19,599 nt of DNA from positions 1 through 19,599 of the forward strand of contig JAEOUG010000042.1 of NCBI GenBank assembly GCA_016839445.1. Reading direction: 5' to 3'. Of this stretch, positions 1-19,599 are shown in pieces; within the stretch, counting starts at the first letter, position 1, and each line of letters opens with the position of its first letter. Position numbers and translations under genes: made by a program. The stretch comes from Candidatus Thorarchaeota archaeon. GTDB lineage: Archaea; Asgardarchaeota; Thorarchaeia; Thorarchaeales; Thorarchaeaceae. Below the pieces are notes generated by a model. It ran no database searches, had not been told where the DNA came from, and worked only from the letters and a program-made list of their open reading frames with translations.

Positions 1-224
1 AGATATTCATGCGAGCGGGGGGTATTGTGACAAACTCCACATGCGGTGCGTGTGTCGGGGGTCATCTTGGAGTCCTTGGAGCAGGGGAAGTATGCATTTC
101 GAGCACGAACAGGAACTTCAGAGGACGAATGGGGCATCAGGACTCTCGCATATACCTGGCCTCTCCTGCGACGGTGGCAGCCAGTGCCTTGACTGGCGTA
201 ATCACAGATCCGAGGAGGGGCTGA
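1..224 (+). CDS. leuC: 3-isopropylmalate dehydratase / homoaconitase-family large subunit, C-terminal fragment (5'-truncated by window edge)
   Basis: The frame is open from the window edge (..IFMRAGGIV). It contains the [4Fe-4S] ligand motif TCGACVG and the signature [14 protein letters not shown]...[18 protein letters not shown]. The small subunit follows after 3 nt. LeuC versus HacA cannot be resolved from this fragment. Confidence 0.9.
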
Positions 225-227
225 CGG

Positions 228-734
228 ATGGGCAAAAGTCTCTCGGACATAACCGGCCGCGCATGGGTCTTCGGAAACAACATAGACACGGACCAGATCA
301 TCCAAGGCCAGTACCTGACCATACTAGAATACCCGGTGATGGCCAAGCATACATTCGAAATTCCTAGGCCGCTATTCGCATCCAAGGTGAAAAGAAACGA
401 TGTGGTTGTGGCGGGACGCAACTTCGGCGGAGGTTCATCCCGAGAGGAAGCACCAAGAGTCTTGCTGGAACTCGGTGTTGGTGGCGTGGTTGCAGAGTCT
501 TTCGCGCGAATTTTCTACAGGAATTCCTTCAATCTAGGCCTTCCTCTGCTCATCATTCCCAATGTGGGCAAACTGGTTCAAGACGGAGACAGTGTGACAG
601 TGAATCTTCTGGAGGGCACACTGACTGTGAAGAAGAACGGTGACGTTCTCCACGGAAAGCCTCTATCAGAGCGAATGGTGAATCTCCTGAGAGCAGGTGG
701 TGCTGTTGAGTGGTTCAAACAGCACCGAGCCTGA
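228..734 (+). CDS. leuD: 3-isopropylmalate dehydratase / homoaconitase-family small subunit (archaeal type, 168 aa)
   Basis: Motifs GRAWVFGNNIDTDQII, AGRNFGGGSSREEAP and AESFARIFYRNSFNLGLP. SD-like GAGGAGG at 212-218. Confidence 0.92.
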   Translation: MGKSLSDITGRAWVFGNNIDTDQIIQGQYLTILEYPVMAKHTFEIPRPLFASKVKRNDVVVAGRNFGGGSSREEAPRVLLELGVGGVVAESFARIFYRNSFNLGLPLLIIPNVGKLVQDGDSVTVNLLEGTLTVKKNGDVLHGKPLSERMVNLLRAGGAVEWFKQHRA

Positions 735-748
735 ACTATCCATTTCGC

Positions 749-1633: not shown

Positions 1634-1675
1634 GCTTTTCACCTGCAAGTATTGACCCCACCCCGTATTGAACGC

Positions 1676-1728
1676 CTATAAGGTCTGAGAGTATACATTC
1701 TCGCAGTCTGACTGGAAAACGTTAAGAG
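1676..1728. promoter_or_regulatory. Divergent archaeal promoter region (putative BRE/TATA on both strands)
   Basis: On the + strand, GAAAAC-GTTAAGAG (1715-1728) lies about 50 nt upstream of ATG 1775. On the - strand, TTATAG (1676-1681) lies about 45 nt upstream of ATG 1633. Motif resemblance only. Confidence 0.4.
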
Positions 1729-1774
1729 TCCCCGGACTCAGACCATCCACACACCATCGGAGAGAGGACATCAC

Positions 1775-3553: not shown

Positions 3554-3559
3554 GAAGCT

Positions 3560-3589
3560 GGTTGGGGCGGCTTCTCAGCTGCCCCCACC
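3560..3589. terminator. GC-rich hairpin between convergent genes (possible terminator or transcript-end structure)
   Basis: GGGGCGGCT-tctc-AGCTGCCCC (9 bp with one G-U), extended by GGT/ACC, just after the 3553 stop. There is no long T-tract. Confidence 0.4.
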
Positions 3590-3627
3590 TACTCTCGGAC
3601 ATTATGTCGGCCCGAACCTCAGCCAGA

Positions 3628-4794: not shown

Positions 4795-4827
4795 CGTTCG
4801 AACCTAGAAGTGGAAACAGAACACCTT

Positions 4828-4836
4828 CTTAAAACC
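4828..4836 (-). promoter_or_regulatory. Putative TATA box for the acyl-CoA dehydrogenase gene
   Basis: The minus strand reads GGTTTTAAG, ending 34 nt upstream of ATG 4794. No SD precedes that ATG, which fits a short-leader transcript. Confidence 0.45.
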
Positions 4837-4862
4837 GTAACTCATAGAGAGGGATTGAGTAC

Positions 4863-5186
4863 TCATTTCATGGGCCTGAAGCGGAGCCGCTCAGCATCAT
4901 CAAGACTCAGCTCCACATTTGCCCCAATCTTCAAGTCAGGAAACGTCGTCTTCTCTTCGAGAAGACACAGTACCGTGGCATCCTGTTCTAGTCGCACTAG
5001 GGCCATCATGAGAGGGGGTTCAAATCCTTCCGGAGGCATGTGGAGCAGAGTGTAACTGAGGATCTCTCCGCGGGGAGATAGTTCTGTGGGCTCCATTGAG
5101 CCAGCTATTCCACAGTAGGGGCAGAGGTCCCTGGGAGGTACAACTACTCGTGAGCATTTGCTGCACGTGGAGGACTTGACCTTCAT
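4863..5186 (-). CDS. DUF35-family Zn-ribbon + OB-fold protein (thiolase/acyl-CoA-associated scaffold), about 107 aa
   Basis: CSKC...PPRDLCPYCG Zn ribbon, then LSPRGEILSYT..H.PPEGFEPP..MALVRL OB fold. ATG 5186 (MKVKSSTC) avoids the overlap with the giant gene that the 5267 start in the ORF track would need. Confidence 0.88.
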   Translation of the reverse strand: MKVKSSTCSKCSRVVVPPRDLCPYCGIAGSMEPTELSPRGEILSYTLLHMPPEGFEPPLMMALVRLEQDATVLCLLEEKTTFPDLKIGANVELSLDDAERLRFRPMK

Positions 5187-5218
5187 CTGCGACACAGCCA
5201 CAGAGAGAGCTTGAGTCG

Positions 5219-5241
5219 AGAAAAGAGTTCCGTAAGGACTC
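5219..5241 (-). terminator. Possible terminator after the giant gene (alternatively a promoter/operator of the DUF35 gene)
   Basis: The minus strand reads GAGTCC-ttac-GGAACTC followed by TTTTCT, starting 3 nt after the TGA at 5245. Confidence 0.35.
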
Positions 5242-5244
5242 CCC

Positions 5245-8200
5245 TCACGACTCACCTTCAGGGCCAATGAAGGACTCCAGCAGACTGATCAGTTCCTGCT
5301 TGCTCAGGCGCTTAAGCTCCTTGGCGCTTACGGTCGACTTGATGTCATCAGGTAGCAGATCCATTAGCTCGTTCTTGCTCAGCTCTGAGAGGGGTAGCTC
5401 CGTTGTAAGAGGTACCGAAGGTTCGGTCGGCAGAGGTCCACCCACATCCGGGAGCGGCTCCTCAGGAGGCACGTATGACTCTATGAGACCCTCAATCTCC
5501 TTCTTCGATAGCTTCTGCAAGTCAGCTTCCGGAATTGCCTCTCGAATCTCAGGAGGCATTGAATCGAGTAGCTCCTTCTTGGTCAAAGGCCTCTCCGGAG
5601 TAGGCTCGACCTCCACTTCATCGATTTCAGCGGTCTCCGCTTCCACCACTGTGACTTCTTCTGCTTCAGGCTCAGCATCCGCAGAGGGGAGTTCTTCCTC
5701 AACCACCTCAACCTCGGGCTCGATTACGGGCTCCTCCACAACCTCCTCGACAGGTTCGGCAGCCAAATCCTCAGTTGGTATCTCAGGCTCAGCAGCAAGC
5801 TCAGTGTCCTCAAGCAATGCCGCTTCGGACTCCGCAGCCTCGGGCTCGGAAACGACCTCGTCTACCTCATCAAGCCCAGTTTCCTCCTCGATCTCGGGAG
5901 TGATTGCCTCTTCGATGTCCTCTGCTTCATCGACTCCGACCATGTCTTCCTCCAACGAGACTTCTGGCTCAGCGGCGCCCAGACCTTCGGGCTCGACATC
6001 GAAGTCCAGTCCTCCAGGAACACTTGGTTTTCGTCGGCGAGCAACAACAACTATGCCACCGATGGCAACTACACCCACGACGGCCGTCAGAGCTATCGTC
6101 TCGATGGGCAGACCTACTGAGCCGCCGGGAGCAAACTCCACAACCACACTCTGGGCATTGAGGTTCAGAACTTGGATTCCGTGTTCGTTGTCCCAGATGC
6201 TATCGACTCTGAAGGTGTAGCTACCTGCAACAGACTTTACCACTGACGCGGTCCAATACCCTGCTGCGTTGTAGGTCATGCTATGCACCATTGAACCGTC
6301 GGTCAGGCGAACCTCACCGTCGGTCACCGCGGTCTCGTCAAACTCGTATACCATTGTGACACGAATCTCGACACTCTGCCCCGCATTCAGCGAATCAGTG
6401 GATGCGGTTGTTGTTTCAACCCTAACACGATCCCAGATGACAGTCACATCACTGACTGTCTGCACGAAGTTGTCAATGTTCTCGAGGGACGCAGAGATAA
6501 TGCCGAAGCTTGAGCTCGTCACAGTGCTCTCTGAGTGAGAGGCAATCAGAAAACCGGTAGAAGGCAGCAAACTGATACCTCCGGTCATCTGAGAGACAAT
6601 ACCAGCGGCTACCGGTATGCCTGCGTTCTCAAGCCGTACACTCCAATTGAGTGAGATAGTGTCACCGATGTTGACGTGTGCGTCGGAGACAGACACCGCG
6701 TAGAACTCAAGTCGGTCCCAGTAGAAAGTGACACTCTGACCATCCATGTTGTACTCTGTTATGCCGTGGAGTGTGGCGTCGCAGGTAGTCAGGTCATCAA
6801 GCATGAGGGACTGGTAGGAACTCCTTGAGATAGAGGCCTCCCATCTGCCTGTGCCTACATGGGCCAACGCCTCTCCTGCTATGCTGAAGGATCCTGCCAG
6901 AACCCATGTGCCGTCGTACTCGTACTGGAGTGTGACTGCAACAGTGCCCGACTCATCAGGGTCGAAGTAGAACAGGGTGGCGGAGATGGAGACTACGTGG
7001 ACGCGGTCCCATATGACCCACGTCACATCACTTGACTGTATTAGCGTGATTCCGTGGTAGTCACCTGAAAGCGAGGATGCAACATAGCCCTGCCTCTGTG
7101 GTGATGAGTACTGGAAGTCGGTGTTGTTCAGGGTGACTGTCCCATCGAAGGGTGCGCCATCAAAGGCATAGACAGCTGAGACAAGAATACCTGTTGCATT
7201 GAGCCCAACGTCGATGCGTTGATCCGCGGGATTGGTTATTGACACCACCACGGCATCCCATATGACGCTCTGTGTTGAAGTCAGGACCGTGTAGTTGGAG
7301 ATTCCGTAGGTCGACTCCAAGACAGACACGATATCGAAGAAGTCCTGCTGTACTGATGCACGAGACCCCGACCAGTGCCATCGGGCCTCAACTGAATCCC
7401 AGGTGAGGACCAGCGATCCGTTGATCTCAATGGTCACACCAGATGTAATTTCAGAACTATCGTAGACGTATCTGGCCCTCCACCAGACCTCGCCGACTGT
7501 GTTGACGTTGACTCGCGAGTCAACGGTCCCTGCCTGATAGACCTCCACTCTGTCAGTAATGAACGTGTCAGTGACACTCGCGCCGAAGAAGAGGTCAGAA
7601 GAGCCAGAGCCTGCACCTTCAATCACAATCTTGAATGTGTAGGTGTTGAGACGTACTACGAGCGATGAGGAGATAGACCCGACTGTGAAGTCCCCGGCCA
7701 CAAGATTACCCATCCAAGTGCCCGACACGTCATGGACAATCCATACGTCGGTCTCGTTGGCAAGTGGGGTTATGCTAGAGCCATAGTAGATTACTGAGCC
7801 CTGAGCGACTAGGTCGGTTGTGTTCACATCCCCTCGGTCATCGGACAGACTGGGAGTCGCGGAGTAATCCAGCCTTGTCTCGACATTCCAGCCGAGTGAG
7901 TAGGAGTCTGCATCAGAGTCGATGCCGTCTGTGACGAGTTGCTCCACGTAGCAGCCGGAAACATCCGGATGTGTCCAATCAATCTTGATCATCCAGACAA
8001 TCTCGAGAACATCGCCCGTGCCAGAAGCGTAGGAGGACGCTGAGATGGTGAGGAAGCTACCTCCGAGCTCAACACTGAATACTCCAGTTGCTCGCGTGTA
8101 TCGGAGAATCCAGATAACAGTGCTGTTGTCATCAGCAAGGAGGGTTAGCTCGACATAGCTGATGCTGAGGTACCCGTTTGCATCGCTCACGTTGCTAGTG

Positions 8201-11200
8201 AGCACGTAGTAGCGATAGCGAGCGTACATGTAGTCAGTATCGTCGGCGTTTGTCAGCACAGGAGTCGCTGTGTTGATCGGAACCTCGTTAGGAGCGGCAG
8301 ACCAGACGGCAAGTCTAGTATTGACAGTGAATGCTGTTATCCCGTAGGCCGTTTCAGATGTGATGATGCTCACCGTGTACTCATAGGCAACATCAGTACC
8401 CACATCGACGAAGAGTGAGAGATTAGTGTCCGTGAAGGAATGCCACCACGTGCTGTTTCGAATGACCACAACCTGATACGTAGAACAGACTGAGTCATCA
8501 TAGTCGAAGGTCACGGTGAGAGTGAAGTTGGCCTGAACTCCGTTTACGAGAGATGGGTCATCAACACCAACAGAGATGATGAGACGATCCCAGATTATGG
8601 TCTGAGAGAAGGCGTTCTGGTCAATGGCACTGATACCGTATGTGTTGCCAGAGGCACTCACTGCGTTGAATAGAGCGGATGACACTGAGGCATTCGACAC
8701 AGAGATGCGCCATAGACCACCACCCTGATGAGATGCCGCTTCACCATTGATCAGGACAGACCCTGTTGTGACGGGGGAACTGTCGTAGAGAGACACCAGT
8801 GTGACATCCAGATCCACTGTGTCTCCGATGTTCACACGACCATCAGAAACAGAAGAGGATTGGACCTGAATCTGGTCCCACACAATGGCCACGCTCTGCC
8901 CATTAAGGTCGAGGAGTGTGATGCCATGGACTGTACTGATGCTTGAATTGACGAAGTAGGCCCAAGCGCCAACTGACAACTGGCTGACCTGCAGCTCGAA
9001 CCAGGAGTTACCCGCATCCCAAGTCATCGCTGAACCATCAAGGGTCACTGAGTCTGCCGAACCAAGGAATGTGCCATCGTACTCGTGCCAGACTGTGACT
9101 CGCACTTCAGCACTGGTGCTAATGTCAATCCGAGAGTCATCCGCAACTGTGGTCTGCACAACTAGGCGGTCCCAGACAACCGCGACATTCTGGGAGTTAA
9201 GGTCTAGGGCGGTGATTCCGTAGGTCGAGTCAGCTGTTGCGTTCACGAAGTAGAGCCAACTGCCTACCGATGCCTGTGAAACCAGAAGCTCAAACCACGA
9301 GTTGCCTGCGTCATAGGTCATGAGTGAACCATCAAGAGCCACGCTGTCAGCTGCACCCAAGAGAGTGCTATCATAGGCGAGATACAGAGTCACTCTGATC
9401 TCCGCGTTGTCCCCAACGTTGACCCGATAGTCGTCAGCAGCTGTTGTCTGAACCACAATCTGGTCCCAGATGACCTCCACGAATATGCCATTCATGTCCA
9501 GCGCAGTGATTCCATATGTGGACTCAATCGATGAATTGACGAAGTATCTCCACAATCCGACAGAGGACTGCAGGGCACTGTACTCCCACCAGGAGTTGGC
9601 TCCGTCCCAAGACATGGCGCTGTCCTCGAGAGTGACTGTGTCTCCTGCTCCAAGGTATTCGTGATCGTATGCAAGCCAGAGAGTCACACGGATCTCTGTA
9701 GACGTGGTCACATCTACACGCCCATCGGTGACTGCTGTTGTCTGAACGACAATCTGATCCCAGATAACAGAAGCACTCATGCTGTTGACATCCAGACTCG
9801 TGATGCCGTAGGTTGCCTCGGAGCTGGAGTTGACGTAGAAAGCCTGTAGTCCAACATCTGAGAGGGATACAGCAAGCTCAAACCAGGAGTTGCCGAAGTC
9901 CCATGTCATTGATGTGCCGTTCAGAGAAACGGAGTCGCCCGATCCCAGGAATGAACTGTCATAGGCAAGCCAGAGAGTCACACGGATCTCCACGCTATCA
10001 CCGACGTTTGTTCTCGTATCGCTAGCCACGGTCGTCTGTACCACAATCTGATCCCAGATCACATCCTGACTCATGGCACTCTGGTCCACCTGAGAGAGGC
10101 CGTGAGTGCCACCCGAGTATGCAACCGTATCGTAAGTGACCAGCTGAACGCTGGACTTCATGTCAGTGAATCGCCAGACCCCTCCACCCTGATGAGTAGC
10201 GGAGAGTGTGTTGACAGTGACTGTGCCGTCAGTTACGGGGCTCGAGTCGTACTCGTATAGGAGCTCGACATCAATGGTAGCCGTGTCACCAATGTTGATT
10301 CGAGGATCAACGGCCGTGTATACTTGCACCTGAACTCTATCTGAGATGTAGCTGGACTGGGTTGCTGACTCCAGCAGACTCGTGCCACCGCTACCAGCGG
10401 ACTCCGCTACGGCCTTGATGGTTAGGTTGGCCAGAATGACCGAGTTGGCGGCGTAGGCGGTCAGACTGAACTGACCTGAGCTAAGTGTCAAGTCACTCCA
10501 CGGTCCGACATTTGTGCCGTAGGCGTCACTAGAGACCCAGACGTCAGTCTCGTTAGACAACGGGAAGTCGTCACCTGAGCCATAGTAGATCACTGTGCCA
10601 GATACAACGAAAGAGCCATCGAGAGGCCCTCTACCAGCAGTCCCTGAGCCATCATCGACCGTGAGTCCTGTTATCTCAAGCCGAGTCTCTACGTCCCAGT
10701 TGGACTCGTAGTAGTCCTCTACTCCGACTGTACCGTCATTCACGTACTGGTGCATGTCGACATCCACGAGATCTGGATGATCCCAGTCGACCTTGATGGC
10801 CCATGTGATGTCTAAGTCATTCCCGACCATGACAGCGGAACATGAGCCAAGAGCTATGTAGCTTGCTCCTGCCTGGATGCTGAAGGTTCCGCCAGCAACA
10901 GTGTATCTGACTGTCCAGAAAGCGAAGGTTCTAGCGTTATCGTACATGGAGAACTCCACGTATTCGATATCAGCATAGCCATCCGCGTCTGACACGTTGC
11001 TTGTGATGATATAGTATCTGTACCTGGCGTATAGATTGTCCGTGTCATCGGCGTTGATTAGCACGGGCTCCGCGTCGTTGACAGGTGCGATGTTGGCCGC
11101 TATGGACCAAGTCACCTGGCGGCTATTGGAAGTGAAGGCAGTCACACTGAACGTGCCTTCAGAAGTGACAATGGCCACCGTGTATGTGTAAGTCATATCT

Positions 11201-14200
11201 GAATTTGTGTCCACGAATCCTGATTTGTTGGAGTCCGTGAAGGAGTGCCACCATGTACCGTTACGGTACACCACAACCTGATAGGTTGTGCATGCGGCAT
11301 CGTCATAGTCGAAAATCACGGCCAGAGTGAAGTTGGCCTGGACTCCGTTTGTCGGTGACGGATTGTCCACACCAATAGTAATCACAAGCTGGTCCCAGAT
11401 GACGGACACGCTCTGGCCATTCTGATCGATGCTGGAGATTCCGTATGTGTTGCCAGCTGCAGAGACCGTGTTGTATAGGTTCCCAGTCACCGTTGATTCG
11501 GAGTCGGAAGCTCTCCAGACACCCAATCCTATGTGGGTTGCTGAAATGCCGTTCACGGTGACCGTGCCGTCGGTCACCGGGCTATCGTCGTAGTCATAGT
11601 ACAGTGTCACGTCGATGTTGACCGCATCGTTAATGCTAACGCGACTGTCTGAAACTGAGTAGCCCTGCACCTGAACCCTGTCCCAAATGACCTCCTGCGT
11701 CTGAGAGTTCTGGTTGACCGAGGTGATGCCAAGAGTGTTACCTGAGCACACGACAAGGTTGTAGGTGTTCATAGTGACAGCAGACTCGGTGTCAGTAATC
11801 CTCCAGACACCAGATCCCTGGTGAGATGCTGAGATGCCATTAATGGTAACAGAGCCATCTGTGACCGGAGCGTCATCGTACTCGTATTCTAGGGTCACTT
11901 CAATGGTGGCTGCATCATTGATGTTCACGCGCGCATCTGTGGCACTATAGGACCGGACCGCAATCTCATCCCAGACTACCTGCTGGCTCTGACCATTCTG
12001 ATCTACAGAGTCTATGCCGTGCAGGTTCCCGGAGGCAGCCACTGTGCTATAGGTGTTGGCCCAGACTGAGGCCTCTGTGTCACTGAACTGCCAGACACCA
12101 CCCGAGATGTGAGTGGCAGTCAGACCGTTCACTGTAACTGTGCCGTCGGTGATGGGGTTGTCATCATAGTCATAGATTAGTGTGACATTAACATCCACAC
12201 TTGCTCCGATGTTCACACGAGCATCTGCAACTGCGTAGCCCACAACCTGCACTCGATCAAAGATAACATCGACCGACTGGGAGTTCTGGTCGACTGCACT
12301 GATTCCATGCAAGTTGCCTGAACAGCTGACTAGATTGAATGTGACCAGCTGCACAGAACCACGAGTGGCCGTGATGTTCCATATACCAGACTGGAGATGC
12401 GTCGCGCTGTTGCCGTTGATGAGAACGGACCCATCGGTGACGGCTGCATCATCATAGTCATAGATCAGAGTCACGTTGACATCCACGTTGTCATTGATAC
12501 TAGTTCTAGTGTCAGAAACAGAATAAGACACAACGACTACCTGATCCCAAATGACATCCTGCGAAAGGGAGTTCTGGTCTACAACTGAGATGCCGTAGGT
12601 ATTGGCCGAGCAAGCAACCGTGTCATAAGTCACAAGTTGCACCGCAGCCTGCGAGTCTTGAATCCACCAGACTCCAGAGCCGAGGTGATTAGCAGCCTCG
12701 CCGTTGATTGTGACGACTCCGTTTGTCACAGGACTGTCATCATAGTCATAGTAGAGCATCACTTCGATGTTCACAGCTACGTTCACGTTGACTCGGTCAT
12801 CGACGACTGAGTAACCCTGGACCTGGACCCGGTCCCAGATGACCTGTTGAGTCTGCCCGTTCTGGTCAACTGCAGTGATACCGAGGGAGTTCCCAGAGCA
12901 GGCAACTGTATCGTAGGTGTTGGCAATCACTGAAGACTCGGAGTCACTAATCCTCCAGACACCGGACCCCTGATGGACTGCTGAGATTGTGTTAATGGTG
13001 ACAGACCCGTCTGTGACAGGTGAGTTGTCATAATCGTAGTAGAGGGTGACGTCCACATTCACTGAGTCACCGACATTGACCCGGTTGTCTAGAACCGTGT
13101 AGGACTGGACCTGAACACGGTCCCATATCACATCAGTTGATTGGCTGTTCTGGTCTACTGCGGTGATGCCAAAGGTATTGCCAGAGCAGGCGACTGTGTC
13201 GTAGGTGACAAGCTGAACAGAGCTCTGACTGTCCGTGGTCTGCCAGACACCTGAACCCACATGAGTCGCGGAGAGGCTGTTGATAGTAACAGATCCATCT
13301 GTGACAGGTGTGCTGTCGTAGACGTACAGAAGTGTGACGCTCACATCGACGTTGACATTGAGGCCGACTCTATTGTCAGTGGTAGAATAGGATTGAACCT
13401 GTATCTGATCCCAGATTACTGATACACTCTGGGAGTTGAGATTGAGAGCAGTGATACCGTAAGTGGCCTCGGTTGTTGAGTTCACGTAGTACAGCCAGAC
13501 ACCGACTGAGGCCTGTGAACGCGTAAGGTCGAACCAAGAATTGGTGCCATCCCAAGTCATGGCAACGCCATCCAGAGTGACAGAGTCGCCGGCTCCAAGG
13601 GGTGTACTATCGTATTCTAGGATGAGTGTGACCCTGATTTCTGCACTTGCGCTCACATCGACGCGGCCATCGTCGACAAGGGTGGTCTGGACAACGATTC
13701 TGTCCCAGATAACCGAAGTTAACTGCCCGTTCTGGTCGACGGAGGTGATGCCTTCAGTGTTTCCAGAGCAGGCAACTGTATTGTACGTAACCGACTGAAC
13801 TGTGCCTCGGGTCTGAACGACGCGCCAGACCCCCAGTCCTTGGTGGGTAGCGCTGAACCCATTAATGGTCAGACTGCCGTCAGTGACGGGTGTGCCATCA
13901 TAGGCGTACTCAACTGTGACATCCACGTTCACATTGGCGTCTACGTTGGCTCTTGCATCAGATACTGAATATGAGTCTACCAGCACCTGGTCCCAGACCA
14001 CTTGCTGGCTCTGCCCGTTTTGGTCGACAGAGGTGATGCCCTCTGTGTTTCCAGAGCAAGCTACAGTGTCATACGTGACTGATTGGACTGTGCTCTGACT
14101 CTGGACGATGCGCCAGACCCCCAATCCTTGGTGGGCAGCGCTGAACCCATTGATGGTCAGACTGCCATCAGTGACGGATGCGCTGTCATAGGCGTATTCG

Positions 14201-17106
14201 ACTGTTACATCAACGTTGACGCTGTCATCGATGTTCACCCTTGCGTCTGCGACCGTGTAGCCAGTGACAAGAACCTGATCCCAGATTACTTCCTGACTCT
14301 GGCTGTTCTGGTTCACCGAAGTGATTCCATGGGTGTTCCCACTCGCCGCCACGAGATTATATGTCACTGCGGTGACAGAGGCCTGAGAGGGAGAGATTCT
14401 CCAGACGCCAGATCCTTGATGGGCTGCCGAGATAGTGTTTATCGTTACAGTGCCGTCGGTCACTGGGGCGTCGTCGTAATCGTATATCAGTGTGACATCG
14501 ACATTAACGCTGTTCCCCACATTGACGCGGTCGTCAGCAACCGAGTAGGAAACGACCAACACCTGGTCCCAGATGACCTGCTGTGATTGCCCGTTCTGAT
14601 CAACCAGAGAGATTCCGTGGGTTCCACCCGAGTAAGCAACTGTGTCGTAGGTGTTTGCCATGACTGTAGATTCCGACTCTGTGATTCTCCAGACGCCGCT
14701 TCCTTGGTGTGTGGCTGCGGCTGAGTTGATAGTGACCGTGCCGTCTGTGACTGGGCTGTCGTCGTAATCATAATAGAGGGTCACATCGACATTGACATTG
14801 GCATTGATGTCTACTCTGGCATCAACGACGGAGTATGACTGAATCTGCACTTGGTCGGCGATGTAAGTGTCAGTTGTGCTTGTGGTGTAGTACAGGTCGG
14901 TGCCGCCGGACCCTGCCCCTTCCTCGACAACTGTGACTGTGTAAGTGTCCTCTCCAACAACATCGTCTGCATAGCAGGTGACCGAGAATTGGCCAGAGGT
15001 CAAGGTGAGATCGGACCATGGTCCTACTGACGTTCCATACTCTGGTGCTGAAACCCAAACATCAACACTCGCCGAGTCTGGAAAATCGTCACCAGAACCG
15101 TAGTAGATGATGGTGCCTGTGATTGTGAAAGAGCCATCGAGGTCGCCTCTGTCGAGAGTGCCTGAGCCGTCGCTGATGCTTGGTGCAACGGAGTAGTCAA
15201 GCCGGGTCTCTGTGTCCCAATTAACCTCATACCATGTTGTTGATGATTCTGTCTGTGTATCCACAACGTAGACTCTTGCGTCTAGGTCGGTCGAGTCTGG
15301 AAAGTCCCAGTCAATCGTGAAGTAGAATGTTGCATCAATATCATTCCCGCTCTCTGTCGCGGTCGAGCTTCCCGTGTTCAGGGCGACATAAGTTCCTGCG
15401 TCGTATTCCTCAGTGAAAGAGTTCGTGTCCTCGTCATACCTGAACCTACAATACTCGGTGCTCTGTGCGTTATCCCATATGGAAACTTCAAGGTAGTCAA
15501 TGTCAGCAAACCCATTCTGGTCAGAAACATAGGCTGTGACCTGGTACTCCACGTACTGAGCGTACATGTTGTCAGTGTCAGTCGGATTGTCCAGAGTGGG
15601 GGCCTGGTCGCTTGCAGGTGCGTAGCTGGGAGTCCAGACGTGAATCAGTACAGCGTCGATCTCCCACGTGTTTTGTGTAGTGTCGCCGGTTTCAGTCCCT
15701 CCGACAAATCGTATCTCAAAGGAGGAGCCAGTGAGATAGCTAGTAATGCTGACGTTATTCCACTGATCAGGTGCAAGGTCGGAGATGACGTTTGTCCATG
15801 CACCATTCCAGACATCGACCTTGATGTCCTCCGCGGGCCAACCGCCACCGGTCACCGGATAGATACATAGTTCCTCATTGGTCTCGTCATAGTCCGCGCT
15901 TGTCCAACCCACTTCTAGGTCCAACTCGTAGTTGTCGGAGCCAGCCGTCCACACGTGGAGCAGGACTCCCTCTATCTCCCAAGTCTCCTGCGCAGTCGAC
16001 TCGTCACTTGTGTCTGTGAACCGAATCTCCAAGGCAGTGCCAGTGAGATAGGAACTCACTGATACATTGTTCCAGCCGGCAGCGACATCTGCTATCACAT
16101 TCTGCCACTGAGAACCATCCCAGACATCTACTCTAAGGGCCTCGGTGCCCTGAGTGCCTCCGTAGATGCAGAGTTCCTCATTGGATTCATCGAAGTCAGC
16201 TGCGGTCCAGCCGACCTCCAGATCAAGATCGTAGTTTGTCGTGCCAGCCTGGTACACATCAAGGTAGGCAGCATCGACCCAGTTGGTCGTAGGCGCTCCT
16301 CCGCCCTTCGTCATCGTGAACCTCACCCGACATGCATCAATCTCAGCTACGGTGTCAAGTCCACTGACCGTACCGGTGTTGTACCATGCACCTGCAGGGT
16401 CCGTGAATGAGCCACTAGCATCAGCGGTGCCATCGCTTGTCCAGTCCAGCTCCCACGCAATATCATCGTCATCTGCTTGACCACAGTATACATAGAGAAC
16501 CACTGTGAACGTTCCGGAGGAACCTGTTGTGGCGCCAAAACCATACCAACCTGAGACTGCTCCGTTGCTTGCTGTTGAGATGTAGCTGGTGGGGTAGTCC
16601 TGAGCGTCAAGATAGGGAGAGGTTCCGGTCTGAGTCCAAGTGACAGGTGTCGGTGCAGTGTCGACGTACAAGTCCTCGGCAATTTCGGGAGAGCCTGTGT
16701 CACCTTCCGTCAGGGTGTCGTAGACAGAATCGGTGTCCTGCATCTCTGCGAAGTTGCTGTGAGTTCCCACATCGGTTGGCGCATGAAGGTTTGATTGCTG
16801 GTCAACATAGTCCTCCAGATTGAATCCGGACGTGCCCGTATTGCCCTCGGTCATCTGGTCATAGTTGACTCCATAGTCCTGAAGGTCGGCAAATACGCTA
16901 TGCGTCCCTATGTCTGTGGGAGCATGCAGATTGGAGAGCTGCTGTACAAAGCTCTCAGTATTATCCCCTATGCCAGACACCGAGAATGAATCTCCGTCGG
17001 CAATCTGAATCGGGGTTGCCTCTGGCACTCTCATGTCTGGGGAAGGAGCAATCATCATTCCAAATAGCGCCAGGAAAAGTATCAGGGAAAGCACATCTCT
17101 TCTCAT
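5245..17106 (-). CDS. Giant cell-surface glycoprotein/adhesin, 3953 aa, type-I membrane topology
   Basis: Uninterrupted 11.86-kb ORF. N-terminal signal/anchor MRRDVLSLILFLALFGMMIA with SD-like AGGGTG upstream. About 30 beta-rich repeat modules and many NxS/T sequons. C-terminal TM IALTAVVGVVAIGGIVVVA followed by RRRK and a 264-aa tail. Confidence 0.93.
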   Translation of the reverse strand: MRRDVLSLILFLALFGMMIAPSPDMRVPEATPIQIADGDSFSVSGIGDNTESFVQQLSNLHAPTDIGTHSVFADLQDYGVNYDQMTEGNTGTSGFNLEDYVDQQSNLHAPTDVGTHSNFAEMQDTDSVYDTLTEGDTGSPEIAEDLYVDTAPTPVTWTQTGTSPYLDAQDYPTSYISTASNGAVSGWYGFGATTGSSGTFTVVLYVYCGQADDDDIAWELDWTSDGTADASGSFTDPAGAWYNTGTVSGLDTVAEIDACRVRFTMTKGGGAPTTNWVDAAYLDVYQAGTTNYDLDLEVGWTAADFDESNEELCIYGGTQGTEALRVDVWDGSQWQNVIADVAAGWNNVSVSSYLTGTALEIRFTDTSDESTAQETWEIEGVLLHVWTAGSDNYELDLEVGWTSADYDETNEELCIYPVTGGGWPAEDIKVDVWNGAWTNVISDLAPDQWNNVSITSYLTGSSFEIRFVGGTETGDTTQNTWEIDAVLIHVWTPSYAPASDQAPTLDNPTDTDNMYAQYVEYQVTAYVSDQNGFADIDYLEVSIWDNAQSTEYCRFRYDEDTNSFTEEYDAGTYVALNTGSSTATESGNDIDATFYFTIDWDFPDSTDLDARVYVVDTQTESSTTWYEVNWDTETRLDYSVAPSISDGSGTLDRGDLDGSFTITGTIIYYGSGDDFPDSASVDVWVSAPEYGTSVGPWSDLTLTSGQFSVTCYADDVVGEDTYTVTVVEEGAGSGGTDLYYTTSTTDTYIADQVQIQSYSVVDARVDINANVNVDVTLYYDYDDSPVTDGTVTINSAAATHQGSGVWRITESESTVMANTYDTVAYSGGTHGISLVDQNGQSQQVIWDQVLVVSYSVADDRVNVGNSVNVDVTLIYDYDDAPVTDGTVTINTISAAHQGSGVWRISPSQASVTAVTYNLVAASGNTHGITSVNQNSQSQEVIWDQVLVTGYTVADARVNIDDSVNVDVTVEYAYDSASVTDGSLTINGFSAAHQGLGVWRIVQSQSTVQSVTYDTVACSGNTEGITSVDQNGQSQQVVWDQVLVDSYSVSDARANVDANVNVDVTVEYAYDGTPVTDGSLTINGFSATHQGLGVWRVVQTRGTVQSVTYNTVACSGNTEGITSVDQNGQLTSVIWDRIVVQTTLVDDGRVDVSASAEIRVTLILEYDSTPLGAGDSVTLDGVAMTWDGTNSWFDLTRSQASVGVWLYYVNSTTEATYGITALNLNSQSVSVIWDQIQVQSYSTTDNRVGLNVNVDVSVTLLYVYDSTPVTDGSVTINSLSATHVGSGVWQTTDSQSSVQLVTYDTVACSGNTFGITAVDQNSQSTDVIWDRVQVQSYTVLDNRVNVGDSVNVDVTLYYDYDNSPVTDGSVTINTISAVHQGSGVWRISDSESSVIANTYDTVACSGNSLGITAVDQNGQTQQVIWDRVQVQGYSVVDDRVNVNVAVNIEVMLYYDYDDSPVTNGVVTINGEAANHLGSGVWWIQDSQAAVQLVTYDTVACSANTYGISVVDQNSLSQDVIWDQVVVVSYSVSDTRTSINDNVDVNVTLIYDYDDAAVTDGSVLINGNSATHLQSGIWNITATRGSVQLVTFNLVSCSGNLHGISAVDQNSQSVDVIFDRVQVVGYAVADARVNIGASVDVNVTLIYDYDDNPITDGTVTVNGLTATHISGGVWQFSDTEASVWANTYSTVAASGNLHGIDSVDQNGQSQQVVWDEIAVRSYSATDARVNINDAATIEVTLEYEYDDAPVTDGSVTINGISASHQGSGVWRITDTESAVTMNTYNLVVCSGNTLGITSVNQNSQTQEVIWDRVQVQGYSVSDSRVSINDAVNIDVTLYYDYDDSPVTDGTVTVNGISATHIGLGVWRASDSESTVTGNLYNTVSAAGNTYGISSIDQNGQSVSVIWDQLVITIGVDNPSPTNGVQANFTLAVIFDYDDAACTTYQVVVYRNGTWWHSFTDSNKSGFVDTNSDMTYTYTVAIVTSEGTFSVTAFTSNSRQVTWSIAANIAPVNDAEPVLINADDTDNLYARYRYYIITSNVSDADGYADIEYVEFSMYDNARTFAFWTVRYTVAGGTFSIQAGASYIALGSCSAVMVGNDLDITWAIKVDWDHPDLVDVDMHQYVNDGTVGVEDYYESNWDVETRLEITGLTVDDGSGTAGRGPLDGSFVVSGTVIYYGSGDDFPLSNETDVWVSSDAYGTNVGPWSDLTLSSGQFSLTAYAANSVILANLTIKAVAESAGSGGTSLLESATQSSYISDRVQVQVYTAVDPRINIGDTATIDVELLYEYDSSPVTDGTVTVNTLSATHQGGGVWRFTDMKSSVQLVTYDTVAYSGGTHGLSQVDQSAMSQDVIWDQIVVQTTVASDTRTNVGDSVEIRVTLWLAYDSSFLGSGDSVSLNGTSMTWDFGNSWFELAVSLSDVGLQAFYVNSSSEATYGITSLDVNSMSASVIWDQIVVQTTAVTDGRVDVTTSTEIRVTLWLAYDHEYLGAGDTVTLEDSAMSWDGANSWWEYSALQSSVGLWRYFVNSSIESTYGITALDMNGIFVEVIWDQIVVQTTAADDYRVNVGDNAEIRVTLYLAYDSTLLGAADSVALDGSLMTYDAGNSWFELLVSQASVGSWLYFVNATADSTYGITALDLNSQNVAVVWDRLVVQTTVADDSRIDISTSAEVRVTVWHEYDGTFLGSADSVTLDGSAMTWDAGNSWFELQVSQLSVGAWAYFVNSSISTVHGITLLDLNGQSVAIVWDQIQVQSSSVSDGRVNIGDTVDLDVTLVSLYDSSPVTTGSVLINGEAASHQGGGLWRISVSNASVSSALFNAVSASGNTYGISAIDQNAFSQTIIWDRLIISVGVDDPSLVNGVQANFTLTVTFDYDDSVCSTYQVVVIRNSTWWHSFTDTNLSLFVDVGTDVAYEYTVSIITSETAYGITAFTVNTRLAVWSAAPNEVPINTATPVLTNADDTDYMYARYRYYVLTSNVSDANGYLSISYVELTLLADDNSTVIWILRYTRATGVFSVELGGSFLTISASSYASGTGDVLEIVWMIKIDWTHPDVSGCYVEQLVTDGIDSDADSYSLGWNVETRLDYSATPSLSDDRGDVNTTDLVAQGSVIYYGSSITPLANETDVWIVHDVSGTWMGNLVAGDFTVGSISSSLVVRLNTYTFKIVIEGAGSGSSDLFFGASVTDTFITDRVEVYQAGTVDSRVNVNTVGEVWWRARYVYDSSEITSGVTIEINGSLVLTWDSVEARWHWSGSRASVQQDFFDIVSVLESTYGISNYTVLTSTQSVIWDAVVVSITNPADQRIDVGLNATGILVSAVYAFDGAPFDGTVTLNNTDFQYSSPQRQGYVASSLSGDYHGITLIQSSDVTWVIWDRVHVVSISATLFYFDPDESGTVAVTLQYEYDGTWVLAGSFSIAGEALAHVGTGRWEASISRSSYQSLMLDDLTTCDATLHGITEYNMDGQSVTFYWDRLEFYAVSVSDAHVNIGDTISLNWSVRLENAGIPVAAGIVSQMTGGISLLPSTGFLIASHSESTVTSSSFGIISASLENIDNFVQTVSDVTVIWDRVRVETTTASTDSLNAGQSVEIRVTMVYEFDETAVTDGEVRLTDGSMVHSMTYNAAGYWTASVVKSVAGSYTFRVDSIWDNEHGIQVLNLNAQSVVVEFAPGGSVGLPIETIALTAVVGVVAIGGIVVVARRRKPSVPGGLDFDVEPEGLGAAEPEVSLEEDMVGVDEAEDIEEAITPEIEEETGLDEVDEVVSEPEAAESEAALLEDTELAAEPEIPTEDLAAEPVEEVVEEPVIEPEVEVVEEELPSADAEPEAEEVTVVEAETAEIDEVEVEPTPERPLTKKELLDSMPPEIREAIPEADLQKLSKKEIEGLIESYVPPEEPLPDVGGPLPTEPSVPLTTELPLSELSKNELMDLLPDDIKSTVSAKELKRLSKQELISLLESFIGPEGES
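5269..5586 (-). repeat. Two 38-aa helical repeats at the C-terminus of the giant protein (5473-5586 and 5269-5382)
   Basis: LTKKELLDSMPPEIREAIPEADLQKLSKKEIEGLIESY versus LSKNELMDLLPDDIKSTVSAKELKRLSKQELISLLESF: 15/38 identical with no gaps, separated by a Pro-rich linker. Confidence 0.85.
6028..6096 (-). other. C-terminal transmembrane helix plus positive-inside stop-transfer of the giant protein
   Basis: aa 3671-3689 IALTAVVGVVAIGGIVVVA, then RRRK (aa 3690-3693). Confidence 0.9.
6133..7554 (-). repeat. Membrane-proximal block of five divergent Ig-like repeats
   Basis: Most units keep the frame D[RA]V..., Y[EVA][YF]D, HG/YGI, and V[IF]W/YW-D junctions, but vary in length and are far more diverged than the distal blocks. 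Confidence 0.75.
8590..10341 (-). repeat. Block of six Ig-like repeats (A-B-B-B-B-A; A = 96 aa, B = 98 aa)
   Basis: B consensus DQIVVQTT..DxRV....EIRVTL.L.YD...LG..DSV.LDG..M.WD..NSWFEL..SQ.SVG.W.YFVNS..E.TYGIT.LD.N....VIW. The spacing sums exactly to 584 codons. Confidence 0.9.
11395..14856 (-). repeat. Block of twelve tandem Ig-like repeats (A4-B-A7; 288-nt period for A units)
   Basis: A consensus D[QR]V.V.SYSV.DxRVN....VNVDVTL.YDYDD.PVTDG.VTIN..SA.HQGSGVWRI..S.S.V...TY.TVACSGNT.GI..VDQN.QSQ.VIW. The spacing sums exactly to 11x96+98 = 1154 codons. Confidence 0.93.
15631..16956 (-). repeat. N-terminal tip of the giant protein: two 41-aa repeats, a unique core of about 144 aa, then two repeats of about 100 aa
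   Basis: Short repeats at aa 51-91 and 98-138 (SNLHAPTD.GTHS.FA..QD....YD..TEG.TG, 26/41 identical). Long repeats at aa 291-387 and 392-492 (NY.LDLEVGWT.AD.DE.NEELCIY...WNNVS..SYLTG...EIRF...TWEI..VL.HVWT). Confidence 0.9.
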
Positions 17107-17339
17107 TCTTTTGACACCCTTTGCTGATTAGGCAGATGCGTTTGATTCTTGACGAAGTCTGTTTCCTGCTGCAGTCACTCAACAAGACGACCATGACTTC
17201 GCCATGTGACCGTCAGTTAGCATGCTAGGCCCATATCTGAGCACGTACACAGTCGCTGCCGTCGTAGGTCAAATAAGACAATCTAGGATGAACCGACGTA
17301 TTGCAGGTGGAGTGAAACGCGGACAGACAATGTAGGTTA

Positions 17340-18521
17340 CTATTCTGCCCCCAGAATCGTGACCACGATGTTGTTGCCGAAGCCACCGATATTGTGTGCT
17401 AGACCAATCCGTGGAGACTGCGTCTGCAACCCAGGCGGAGCTTCTCCCCTCAGCTGCAAAACGATGTCTCGAATCTGTGCAACGCCTGTGGCACCAGTCG
17501 GGTGGCCTCGTGCCTTTATCCCACCAGATGGATTGACTGGAATCTCACCAGAGACCTCCAGCGACCCCTTCTTCACGAGATCAATGGAAGCTCCTCTTGG
17601 AGCAAGCCCCAGGTCTTCCACATTCACTAGTTCCAGAATCGAGAAGGCATCATGCACTTCACATACATCTACGTCTGCAGGTCCTATGCCAGCCATTTGA
17701 TAGGCGCGCTCAGACGCTCTGACTGTGGCACTCAAGGACGTCAGTGAGTGTCTGTGTTGAACTGCAAAATAGTCGGTGGCATGACCGATGCCCAAAACCT
17801 GAATCGCATCTCTCGGGACATCCACATTCCTAGCGAGATCGTCTGACGTAATGACAACTGCTGCGGCTCCGTCCGACGTTGGGCTGCAATCGTACAGTGT
17901 GAGTGGGTCCGCGACGACTCGTGAGGAGCACACCTCTTCAATGGTAATCTCCTTCTGGAAGTGTGCGAGTGGGTTCTTCGCGCCATTCCTGTGTGCTTTC
18001 ACCGGTATCAGTGAGAGCTCGTCCCGAGTCAATCCGTAGTCGTGCATATAACGTCGAGCAATCATGGCTGCTAAAGCAGTAGGAGTCGCACCGTACCGCG
18101 CTTCATCTTCGAAGGATATCATCTTTGAGAGAATTCGTGAGGCCTGTCCTCTGTCAACTTCAGACATCTTCTCGACGCCCACCACAAGAACAGCTTCGGC
18201 TGCTCCTGAAGCAACCATGTTGAATCCTGCCTCAACTGCGCTCGCTCCCGAGGAGGGTCCTGTTTCGACACGCGTGGCTCCCGCAGGAACTAGGCCCAGC
18301 CTATCCGCGAGGTGCGTGGAAACGTGTCCTCGCTGGGTGAACTCGTCAGGGTTCTGGCAACCCACACACACGTGGTCTATGGCCCCCGAAGCGAGAGCCG
18401 CATCAGTCATGGCCTCAAAGGCGGCTTGGGCTGCTAGGTCAACGAGAGAGTCTGCTAGGACTCCGAATCTCGTCATCCCAACGCCAATAATGTTGACCGG
18501 CCTCAAGGGGTGCATCCTCAC
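17340..18521 (-). CDS. Thiolase-fold protein (archaeal SCP2/SCP-x type) lacking the nucleophilic Cys, about 391-393 aa
   Basis: Motifs IIGVGMTRFG, KAHRNGAKNPLAH, DCSPTSDGAAA, EVHDAF, VNPSGGIKARGHPTGATG and AHNIGG. The ExACASG motif reads ETGPSSG. The start is GTG 18521 (GTGA overlap with the upstream stop) or ATG 18515. It ends in a double stop TAG TAA. Confidence 0.92.
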   Translation of the reverse strand: MRMHPLRPVNIIGVGMTRFGVLADSLVDLAAQAAFEAMTDAALASGAIDHVCVGCQNPDEFTQRGHVSTHLADRLGLVPAGATRVETGPSSGASAVEAGFNMVASGAAEAVLVVGVEKMSEVDRGQASRILSKMISFEDEARYGATPTALAAMIARRYMHDYGLTRDELSLIPVKAHRNGAKNPLAHFQKEITIEEVCSSRVVADPLTLYDCSPTSDGAAAVVITSDDLARNVDVPRDAIQVLGIGHATDYFAVQHRHSLTSLSATVRASERAYQMAGIGPADVDVCEVHDAFSILELVNVEDLGLAPRGASIDLVKKGSLEVSGEIPVNPSGGIKARGHPTGATGVAQIRDIVLQLRGEAPPGLQTQSPRIGLAHNIGGFGNNIVVTILGAE

Positions 18522-19042
18522 TCGACAAGCACAAGAAGATCGTTGGGAGTCACAGTCGAACCGGGAGCAACATTAACCTCCTTGACTGTGCCTGAACTCG
18601 CAACCTTGAGCTCATTGAACATCTTCATGGCCTCAAGAATCGCTACCGTATCACCGCTCTTGACTTTGTCCCCCACTATGACCTTCACCTCAGTGATCTT
18701 GCCAGGCATTGGAGGATACACTCCTCCCTTGACCTTGACACCGCCAGAGGCAGCCGCTGTTGATGCCGCCGCAGCCTCTTGGCGCCGCACGCGTTCCCAT
18801 TCAACTTCCCGCTCCTGGCCATTAATCTCAAGCAGGAGGGACTTGCCTGATCGTCTGAGAATCTTCACAGCGAAATCGGTACTCGTATCGTTCACATTCC
18901 AGGAGTCGTCTTCAGCCCGGCTCGCTTTGATTGTGTAACTCTCTTCACCTACTTTGACAACTAGAACGCCGCCCTCGTCCAGCATTTTGACCTCTACTGC
19001 ATAGGGCTTCTCGTCCAGGGTCACTTCATACTCCCGACTCAT
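18518..19042 (-). CDS. Biotin carboxyl carrier protein with an extended beta-rich N-terminal domain, 174 aa
   Basis: PMPGKI...GD.V..GD....LEAMKM.NEL biotinylation motif, Ala-rich linker (EAAAASTAAASGG) and a strand-rich N-terminus of about 85 aa. TAATG overlap with the upstream gene at 19040-19044. Confidence 0.95.
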   Translation of the reverse strand: MSREYEVTLDEKPYAVEVKMLDEGGVLVVKVGEESYTIKASRAEDDSWNVNDTSTDFAVKILRRSGKSLLLEINGQEREVEWERVRRQEAAAASTAAASGGVKVKGGVYPPMPGKITEVKVIVGDKVKSGDTVAILEAMKMFNELKVASSGTVKEVNVAPGSTVTPNDLLVLVE

Positions 19043-19599
19043 TACTGTGCCCCCTGGTTTCTACCCTTCATGATATCTCGCCTACCTGCGGTTGCCCATG
19101 AGGAAGATGCACGGTCCCATTTTGATGGCGGGTAGGATGCTGTGCGTCCAGCAATCAAGTCAGCACGACCGGAATCGCCCCAAGCTTCTCCATGGACCGC
19201 AGCCCCTCTCACTGTGCCCTTGGAATTCGCCTCCATATGAAGAACAGAGGCGATGATGGCCACTTCAAGCTCAGGTGTCATCTCGCCTCGCTTCTGGCGA
19301 GCTGCCTTTCTCTTCAGAAAGTCGAGAGCATACTGAGGAAAGAGTGCGTAAGAAACCTCATCTCTTGGATGATGCGGAATATCCTTCAATGTCTCTTTGG
19401 CTGCGGGAAGCTCAGGCTCAAGAAGGTCGGCGGGTCGGCAATCCAGAGGCTCCTCGTCGCCGATAGCCATCCTCTTCACCTCTGGGTCTATCGGGGCGGG
19501 AGGTCGTCCGTAATACCCACGGACATACTGCTTGACCTCAGTCGGAATCATGCTGTACCTCTTGCCAGTTATAACATTCAGCGTGGCCTGAGTACCTAC
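19042..19599 (-). CDS. Pyruvate/oxaloacetate carboxyltransferase subunit (PycB/OadA/transcarboxylase-5S family), C-terminal part; 5'-truncated by window edge
   Basis: The frame is open to the window end and reads VGTQATLNVITGKRYSMIPTEVKQYVRGYYGRPPAP...CRPADLLEPEL...D.VSYALFPQ.A..FL, the conserved PYC_OADA domain. There is no fused biotinyl domain; an extra tail of about 80 aa follows instead. Confidence 0.92.
   Translation of the reverse strand, partial: VGTQATLNVITGKRYSMIPTEVKQYVRGYYGRPPAPIDPEVKRMAIGDEEPLDCRPADLLEPELPAAKETLKDIPHHPRDEVSYALFPQYALDFLKRKAARQKRGEMTPELEVAIIASVLHMEANSKGTVRGAAVHGEAWGDSGRADLIAGRTASYPPSKWDRASSSWATAGRRDIMKGRNQGAQ

Follow-up and report, generated by a model that had tools for sequence, protein, structure and literature searches.

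Among giant surface proteins, the RTX adhesins AhLap, FrhA and MpIBP use split domains to project ligand-binding domains, and in AhLap the inserted von Willebrand factor A domain hosts a further insert, a two-level case (PMC12077191, and Graham et al., 2024, Proteins 92:933, cited there). Recursive insertion is described for SI3 of the cyanobacterial RNA polymerase β′ subunit, in which sandwich-barrel hybrid motif domains are inserted into one another over six levels, hosts may carry more than one insert, and the order of the parts is written A1-B1-C-B2-A2 (PMC13114784). In the N-terminal region of reelin, two incomplete subrepeats form one entire subrepeat (PMC11808024). Here we describe a nested architecture from an archaeon. 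It is encoded in a 19,599-nucleotide stretch of DNA, hereafter the window, from a Candidatus Thorarchaeota archaeon (assembly GCA_016839445.1, the whole of contig JAEOUG010000042.1, positions 1 to 19,599), and it forms the N-terminal tip of a giant predicted surface protein, where two short segments (A1 and A2), a core and two long segments (B2 and B1) follow one another. On the basis of a predicted structure, we consider it highly likely that residues 45-495 of this protein are three jelly-rolls, similar to carbohydrate-binding modules (CBMs), nested in one another.

All five segments lie on the minus strand. A1 (residues 51-91; 16834..16956) matches the hidden Markov model (HMM) of the A segments at E 2.7e-22 and would be the opening bracket of the outermost domain, domain 1. 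A2 (residues 98-138; 16693..16815; A HMM E 1e-23) would be the N-terminal part of the middle domain, domain 2, and is followed by the core (residues 144-287; 16246..16677), a predicted contiguous jelly-roll that forms domain 3, the innermost cargo. B2 (residues 291-387, about 97 residues; 15946..16236; B HMM E 4.9e-41) would then close A2, and B1 (residues 392-492, about 101 residues; 15631..15933; B HMM E 4.6e-47) would close A1 and lead into the stalk. Linkers of 4-6 residues separate the units. A1 and A2 share 63% identity over 41 residues (pairwise E 7e-20), the figure for B1 with B2 is 62% over 104 alignment columns (pairwise E 1e-44), and HMM envelopes built on homologues return the same segment boundaries, to the residue. 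The translation, the pairwise identities and the homologue-derived boundaries therefore agree on the five segments that a first-pass annotation, made from the letters of the DNA, had delimited here.

That annotation had also noted that the core starts like the short segments and ends like the long ones. The second likeness holds: profile-profile comparison of B with the core gives a probability of 96% and E 1.8e-9, with B columns 23-100 placed colinearly on core positions 60-143, and BLAST aligns B2 with the core end at 22% identity over 69 residues (E 0.013). The first does not reach significance. The A profile lands on the core where expected, A 3-33 on core 4-33, at E 0.22, and BLAST of A2 with the core start gives 32% identity over 37 residues at E 0.11. 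The match columns of A and B, 42 and 104, sum to the 146 of the core. Because the B profile matches the core and the lengths add up in this way, the core reads as a contiguous relative of the host domain whose halves are A and B.

We modelled residues 45-500 with AlphaFold2 from a 22-sequence alignment (model residue numbers are protein residue numbers minus 44). The mean predicted local distance difference test (pLDDT) score was 90.2 and the predicted template modelling (pTM) score 0.62; in blocks of 10 residues, pLDDT ranged from 77 to 94 over A1 and A2 together and from 77 to 90 in A1 alone. The model gives each A segment a strand, a short helix and a second strand in turn, and each B segment seven strands. 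We aligned the model with 48,161 PDB chains using VIA-align and sorted the 50 best rows by the part of the tip that they cover. Thirty rows cover the core as one contiguous unit, from about model residues 95-101 to 238-244, and include IFT25 (2yc2, Z 9.6), CBM32 (7d2a, Z 8.9) and Eph ligand-binding domains. Twelve run from residues 48-53 to 341-347 and align 110-136 residues of A2 with B2 at a root-mean-square deviation (rmsd) of 2.9-4.6, among them CBM86 (6sgf, Z 11.1, rmsd 3.0, 120 of 129 residues) and CBM29 (1gwk, Z 9.8). Three run from residues 1-4 to 446-452, spanning A1 with B1: CBM8 (7t7z, Z 9.6, 125 residues aligned), 6orf (Z 9.0) and 1k12 (Z 8.7). The remaining five are two-domain alignments with an rmsd above 15. 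Because a single CBM aligns over 110-136 residues, B2 has 97 and the core is matched separately, A2 must supply the extra residues. The topology of the model is thus predicted to be A1[A2[core]B2]B1, three jelly-rolls. It had been proposed that a short and a long segment together make one beta-sandwich and that each domain is inserted in a loop of the preceding one, and that a structure prediction of this region should tell. In the prediction A2 with B2, and A1 with B1, each match single CBM chains; the aligned spans, the summed match columns and the bracket-specific covariation described below all favour the two-part sandwich, and the model spans together with the mirrored pairing of the covariation favour the insertion. 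A complex prediction of A1 (residues 45-97) and B1 (residues 388-500) as separate chains from 8-row alignments scored 0.15 against a mark of 0.32; it was run without controls, and we use it neither for nor against the pairing.

The predicted fold of the tip domains is thus that of a CBM or galactose-binding-like jelly-roll, and no membership of a curated CBM or discoidin family was found. Superposition with 6sgf, 1gwk, 7t7z, 7d2a and 2yc2 covers 117-126 residues at an rmsd of 2.9-3.2, and the three domains match folds of this kind at Z scores of 8.7-11.1 over 114-136 residues at an rmsd of about 3 Å. Sequence identity to these CBM-like chains is 3-14%, and the Z scores stand only moderately above the background of 7-8 quoted for the tool. 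A Foldseek search with the whole model placed reelin structures at the top (6a48, 2e26 and 5b4x; E 1e-7 to 5e-7, TM score 0.17-0.20). Like the tip domains, reelin repeats are jelly-rolls resembling carbohydrate-binding domains; reelin, however, is metazoan, contains EGF modules and has no recursion described for it, whereas the tip matches the Pfam family Reelin_subrepeat-B at E 0.41 only (10.9 bits against a cut-off of 27) and gave no EGF match. A sequence search of the PDB with the B1 profile (residues 388-500; 15607-15945, minus strand) returned, at E 2.3e-6, an engineered triple repeat of the RSL fucose lectin, with single RSL chains at E 0.05-0.2; a search with the whole tip gave E 0.02-0.08. 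RSL folds as a propeller. Because it is a propeller and not a jelly-roll, we rejected kinship with RSL-type lectins and attribute the match to an effect of repeats or Trp-rich motifs, probably the latter; it was the sole sequence-level hint of a sugar-binding relative.

If A and B are the two halves of one domain, their order in other proteins would follow a grammar of brackets, in which A opens and B closes. An exhaustive profile search with an AACBB query, C being the window-type core, returned 802 representative clusters at E<=0.001. The best 150 of these 802, together with the window protein, make up a set of 151 proteins in which we annotated A, B and C with iterated HMMs. With strict hits, 109 of the 151 proteins have balanced words: AABB in 53, AB in 35, AABABB in 9, AAABBB in 8, AAAABBBB in 2, and AABBAB and six A followed by six B (P0006) in one each. 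Merging the B segments that are interrupted raises the strictly balanced proteins to 114 of the 151, and partial hits balance another 8. Of the rest, 17 are truncated at an end and 12 remain unbalanced; in three of these 12 (P0048, P0016 and P0013), a sub-threshold match lies at the position where the grammar predicts the partner. By the sequence grammar, nesting reaches a depth of 6 in P0006 and of 4 in P0003 and P0020, and when partial hits are counted P0133 has six A and six B and carries cargo at four positions, and there are five of each in P0090. Homologues with A(n)-X-B(n) order, matched n from 1 to 6 and a variable X had been looked for and were found. The contiguous AB form that was also sought turned up once, as a cargo-free unit in P0082 (A at 567-606, B at 610-709), and is thus rare.

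The same balance appears when relatives are viewed in their genomes. The tip is a single-copy feature of its own genome (2.9 Mb in 190 contigs, estimated to be 90% complete) and is present in 25 of 61 related genomes, its own included; of the 36 other genomes in its family, 23 carry it. Of 14 named related loci, six are from Thorarchaeota and eight from metagenome-assembled genomes of Bathyarchaeia or Bathyarchaeota, so that the host family appears to occur in both groups. Nineteen of 20 relatives' loci gave matches, and in all 17 that hold both tip ends the count of A equals that of B (L012 and L019 are truncated N-terminally). The 19 comprise eight with AACBB, five with ACB (one of them N-terminally cut), four with AA-X-BB and other cores of 157 or about 267 residues, one branched A A X B A X' B B and one fragment. 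In six proteins or loci, the B half is itself interrupted by 140-696 residues, in the order partial B, insert, partial B: P0028 (550-860), P0041 (293-603), P0046 (745-1054), P0083 (730-1575), the L033 open reading frame (362-667) and the L034 open reading frame (366-671). From these interrupted halves, the host domain would therefore have a second insertion site.

Covariation offered a view of the pairing that is independent of AlphaFold. We computed mutual information with average product correction between A and B columns and took the mean of the ten highest values as the score, using 249 bracket-paired units from 133 balanced proteins (effective number 208). Pairing by brackets gives 0.265, compared with 0.073 +/- 0.003 for random pairing (20 shuffles). 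For the 204 units that come from multi-unit proteins, rotating B within the protein lowers the score from 0.275 to 0.112. A narrower set, 168 units from the 76 proteins that are purely nested with n>=2, separates two orders of pairing. The mirrored order, in which the outermost A belongs to the outermost B, scores 0.292 (maximum 0.411), whereas the parallel order scores 0.116 (maximum 0.125), and mirrored is the higher in all 50 bootstraps over proteins. The data thus favour the proposed pairing of A(i) with B(i), mirrored, over the parallel one. The top pair, A column 12 with B column 71, is D-T in 146 of the 249 units, H-E in 49 and R-E in 6, a charge-complementary switch that looks like a contact; in the window, this pair is His61 of A1 with Glu461 of B1 and His108 of A2 with Glu360 of B2. 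Identity within proteins gave a further comparison: among nine proteins with n>=3, mirrored order is clearly better in six. When depth-1 and depth-2 layers are set side by side, the depth-1 B is nearer to the outer B in 26 of 30, and A is without preference (13 of 30), a result that carries no weight either way.

What the brackets enclose varies widely. Of 183 cargo segments of at least 60 residues, 176 lie between an A and a B, six between two B and one between two A; the last two kinds read as a second insert in the same host loop. BLAST sorts the 183 segments into 25 clusters, the largest of which (75 members) is the type of the window core, and members of cluster 4 take the first position in L010, P0046 and P0058 but the second in P0024, P0050 and P0094. 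Pfam families within cargo are F5_F8_type_C in P0016 and in the depth-6 protein P0006, Laminin_G_3 in P0090, BNR_4 with DUF2341 in P0043, and DUF2341 in P0121. The suggestion that the core is a swappable cassette is thus upheld at the level of architecture, with 25 clusters and with cargo types that change position between proteins. The A-X-B module also keeps varied company outside its brackets: it is joined to a subtilase of family S8 with a fervidolysin-like prodomain in P0119, to an archaeal type IV pilin N-terminal signal in P0016, and to Laminin_G_3 and DUF2341, which lie upstream of it, in P0112. Many shorter homologues (for example P0038, P0039, P0044, P0058, P0061, P0065, P0085, P0091 and P0098) end 113-120 residues past the last B, which suggests a recurrent C-terminal module of about 115 residues, possibly an anchor.

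How does this tip compare with the systems described above? As far as the RTX adhesins are portrayed in PMC12077191, the likeness lies in an interrupted beta-sandwich within a giant fibrillar surface protein, the halves of which fold together while an insert with adjacent termini buds out; by prediction and covariation, the tip is a split host of this kind. The RTX hosts in that account are Ig-like extender-type domains or RTX beta-rolls of Gram-negative, type I-secreted proteins, each with a different cargo. The archaeal host, in contrast, is a CBM-like jelly-roll free of RTX features and inserted into itself up to six deep, in a protein whose N terminus resembles a signal peptide and whose C-terminal region holds a putative membrane helix; RTX or haemolysin-type Pfam families have no match in its 3,953 residues at E<=1. 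With SI3, as presented in PMC13114784, the tip shares the insertion of same-fold domains over several levels, two in the window (three nested domains), and the same notation applies. SI3 is described there as having another fold, within an intracellular enzyme, and an architecture fixed within its lineage, whereas the archaeal module, presumably extracellular, varies in depth from 1 to 6 among close relatives, branches, and holds at least 25 clusters of cargo. Pfam finds no RNA polymerase family in the giant open reading frame, and its tip domains are predicted jelly-rolls. The first-pass annotation had called this an unusual way to build an adhesin tip; unusual it is, but not without precedent, given the recursion described in PMC13114784 and the split hosts in PMC12077191. 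The principle, domain insertion and display by split domains, is known. What looks undescribed is an archaeal CBM-like host lacking a family model, split almost obligatorily, nested in itself with variable depth and branching, and placed at the tips of surface proteins with many types of cargo. A full-text literature search, which did not extend to supplementary files, found neither this family nor self-nested archaeal lectin domains, a term search of the archaeal domain-classification paper PMC13607799 did not find the bracket family, and the ESM Atlas gave no lead, its matches being unnamed clusters at about 0.9 that were poorly recognised.

The tip heads a protein of 3,953 residues, encoded by the giant open reading frame P0001 (5245..17106, minus strand, from the list of open reading frames and its translation). 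Its first 21 residues (17044..17106, minus) read by eye as a hydrophobic, signal-peptide-like N terminus. Beyond the tip, iterated self-HMMs and a motif search delineate a stalk of 23 repeats of about 96 residues (residues 510-3659; 6130..14826, minus), grouped in three blocks of 12, 6 and 5 copies, and each block is headed by a larger module of about 250 residues whose motif lies near residues 510, 2021 and 2956. By composition, a hydrophobic, putatively membrane-spanning segment follows (residues 3671-3688; 6043..6096, minus) and then RRRK, at the start of an acidic C-terminal tail of 265 residues (residues 3689-3953; 5248..6042, minus) with a computed content of about 32% D+E. Neither the whole protein nor residues 1-509 match any Pfam or NCBIfam family at cut-off. 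This layout would make P0001 a C-terminally anchored surface protein with its N-terminal region farthest from the cell, and the acidic tail is presumably cytoplasmic. The tail ends in two similar segments of about 40 residues, which include LSKKEIEGLIESY and LSKQELISLLESF in the translation and could be a candidate cytoplasmic docking motif.

The genes on either side of the giant gene share its strand and belong to acyl-CoA metabolism (3628-5267 and 17340-19551, both minus). They encode an acyl-CoA dehydrogenase, a ChsH2/DUF35-type OB-fold zinc-ribbon protein, a thiolase, a biotin-lipoyl carrier and a carboxylase domain. The DUF35-type gene (4863-5267, minus) overlaps the end of the giant open reading frame by 23 nt, and only the giant gene, at 11.9 kb, stands between it and the thiolase gene. 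DUF35-type and thiolase genes are usually partners in archaea, and because of this the giant gene may be an insertion between the two. Elsewhere in the window, an open reading frame of 592 residues (1775-3553, plus) with no Pfam match at E<=0.001 adjoins a gene for a von Willebrand factor A protein (749-1648, minus).

Three other explanations bear on the data. The segments might be two unrelated tandem arrays, A a linker-like peptide and B an autonomous beta-sandwich, whose equal counts arose by coincidence or from similar rates of slippage. The identities of 63% between the A segments and 62% between the B segments are those of ordinary tandem repeats, A has no significant similarity to the core, and a few proteins (P0071 and P0129) have B with no detected A. 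Set against this, the counts match in 114-122 of the 151 proteins, always in an order that makes a legal bracket word, branched words included; 176 of the 183 cargo segments fall at an A|B junction; the CBM chains aligned over A and B exceed the residue number of B; A and B columns covary specifically as bracket partners; and a strand-helix-strand of 41 residues, modelled with pLDDT blocks of 77-94, cannot fold independently. We give unrelated arrays next to no credence, and regard them as already largely refuted. Slightly less remote, and still very improbable, is that A and B do form one domain with other partners, either A1 with B2 and A2 with B1 or between molecules, by domain swapping or a donor-strand-like polymerisation, so that the nesting would be a preference of AlphaFold. 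The pTM of 0.62, the fact that A-B packing is deduced and not read from contacts, the four of 50 VIA rows that cross units in the low-confidence model of L010, and an identity test in P0086 that favours parallel order all speak for it. The parallel covariation of 0.116 against 0.292 in 50 of 50 bootstraps speaks the other way, as do the spans in the confident model (48-53..341-347 and 1-4..446-452), which fit only the mirrored pairs, and the 4-6-residue linkers, which suit nesting with adjacent ends. A doubt of another kind concerns function: the nesting may be real and the protein no adhesin, the module instead serving as a substrate-targeting or structural part of envelope or polymer-degrading proteins, around a core with no ligand of its own. 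Relatives that join the module to a subtilase (P0119) or a BNR_4 propeller (P0043) would fit, as would the lack of a Pfam lectin match in the window core. The protein nevertheless has the layout of a fibrillar adhesin (signal-like N terminus, tip, 23 stalk repeats, membrane helix and tail), cargo in relatives includes discoidin and LamG domains of lectin type, and all three tip domains resemble CBMs at Z 8-11, a match of fold only. We consider this explanation unlikely, if less so than the other two.

Several observations weigh against three nested jelly-rolls, or against how far that interpretation reaches. The homology of A with the core start is weak, being non-significant in both comparisons (E 0.22 by profile, E 0.11 by BLAST). 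The packing of A on B in the model is deduced from the aligned lengths and end residues of VIA rows, and, with a pTM of only 0.62, the way in which the three domains sit relative to one another is less secure than the fold of each. The branched relative L010, which comes from the same genus and is 844 residues long (A A X B A X B B), gave a poor AlphaFold2 model from a 12-row alignment, with mean pLDDT 60.4, pTM 0.39 and the second cargo unfolded; of its 50 VIA rows, 25 cover the first inner A with B, 14 the second, 1 the outer pair, 3 cargo and 3 several domains, and 4 join the A of one unit to the B of the other. These rows are compatible with the bracket grammar and too weak to count as a test of it. 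The 150 of 802 clusters that score best against an AACBB query favour proteins with both A and B, which may inflate the balanced fraction, and among the 12 of 151 that stay unbalanced, P0071, P0129 and P0085 start with M and have B but no detected A. Covariation can stem from a shared duplication history as well as from contact; even then, A(i) and B(i) would have been inherited as one unit. The mirror test by identity is mixed, since P0086 favours parallel order and P0038 and P0029 give no signal. Finally, the fold predicted for the core is CBM-like (Z up to 9.6), and no family match links the core to a known sugar-binding family.

Collectively, we favour a model in which A and B are the halves of a single host domain, about 146 positions long, which is nearly always split and takes up its insert in the loop after the second strand. 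Along the chain, A1 would be laid down, then A2; the core would fold complete, B2 would finish domain 2 and B1 domain 1, and the stalk would follow. In a jelly-roll the strands at the two ends of the chain are neighbours, which would make the fold both a good host and a good insert, so that a copy of it would suit as an insert and recursion would become possible. With two chain crossings per level, the pedestal would be stiffer than tandem domains joined by single linkers, and, at the outer end of the stalk, the nested stack would present a cargo that binds a ligand. Selection would keep the brackets balanced because orphan half-domains cannot fold. Tandem duplication of a whole A-X-B unit could give rise to branched words, and recombination at the conserved A and B sequences to changes of depth and swaps of cargo. 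Taken as a whole, this explanation of the tip seems to us likely, a shade less so than the nested fold on its own. A role of the tip in adhesion or display is evenly poised between true and false, and the cargo would bind a ligand, probably a glycan in view of the CBM-like folds and the lectin-type cargo of relatives. We lean, with some reserve, towards the broader claim of an undescribed archaeal 'bracket' domain: CBM-like and rarely uninterrupted, following a strict Dyck grammar to depth six, with copies side by side and a second insertion site in B, it would be a general pedestal that, in Thorarchaeota and Bathyarchaeia, presents dozens of exchangeable lectin, propeller and uncharacterised domains, with foldability as the selective rule.

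Families that are split and nested escape linear domain annotation: this one has no Pfam or NCBIfam match, and yet 802 representative clusters match it at E<=0.001. We know of no work on the cell-surface biology of these uncultured Asgard and Bathyarchaeia groups. The A and B halves offer a rule for locating the cargo, the probable ligand-binding parts, in their giant surface proteins. The family is also a natural experiment in domain insertion, with at least 25 clusters of cargo, copies of the host within itself to a depth of six, two inserts per loop and a second site, and the tolerance of the host for inserted domains is directly useful for protein engineering. The two strands that join each level to the next point to another mechanical way of projecting a binding site; if the broader bracket-domain claim is true, the pedestal gains length by nesting and not as beads on a string. 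It would then be the first extracellular family whose architecture is generated by recursive self-insertion, and a natural scaffold for domain-insertion engineering.

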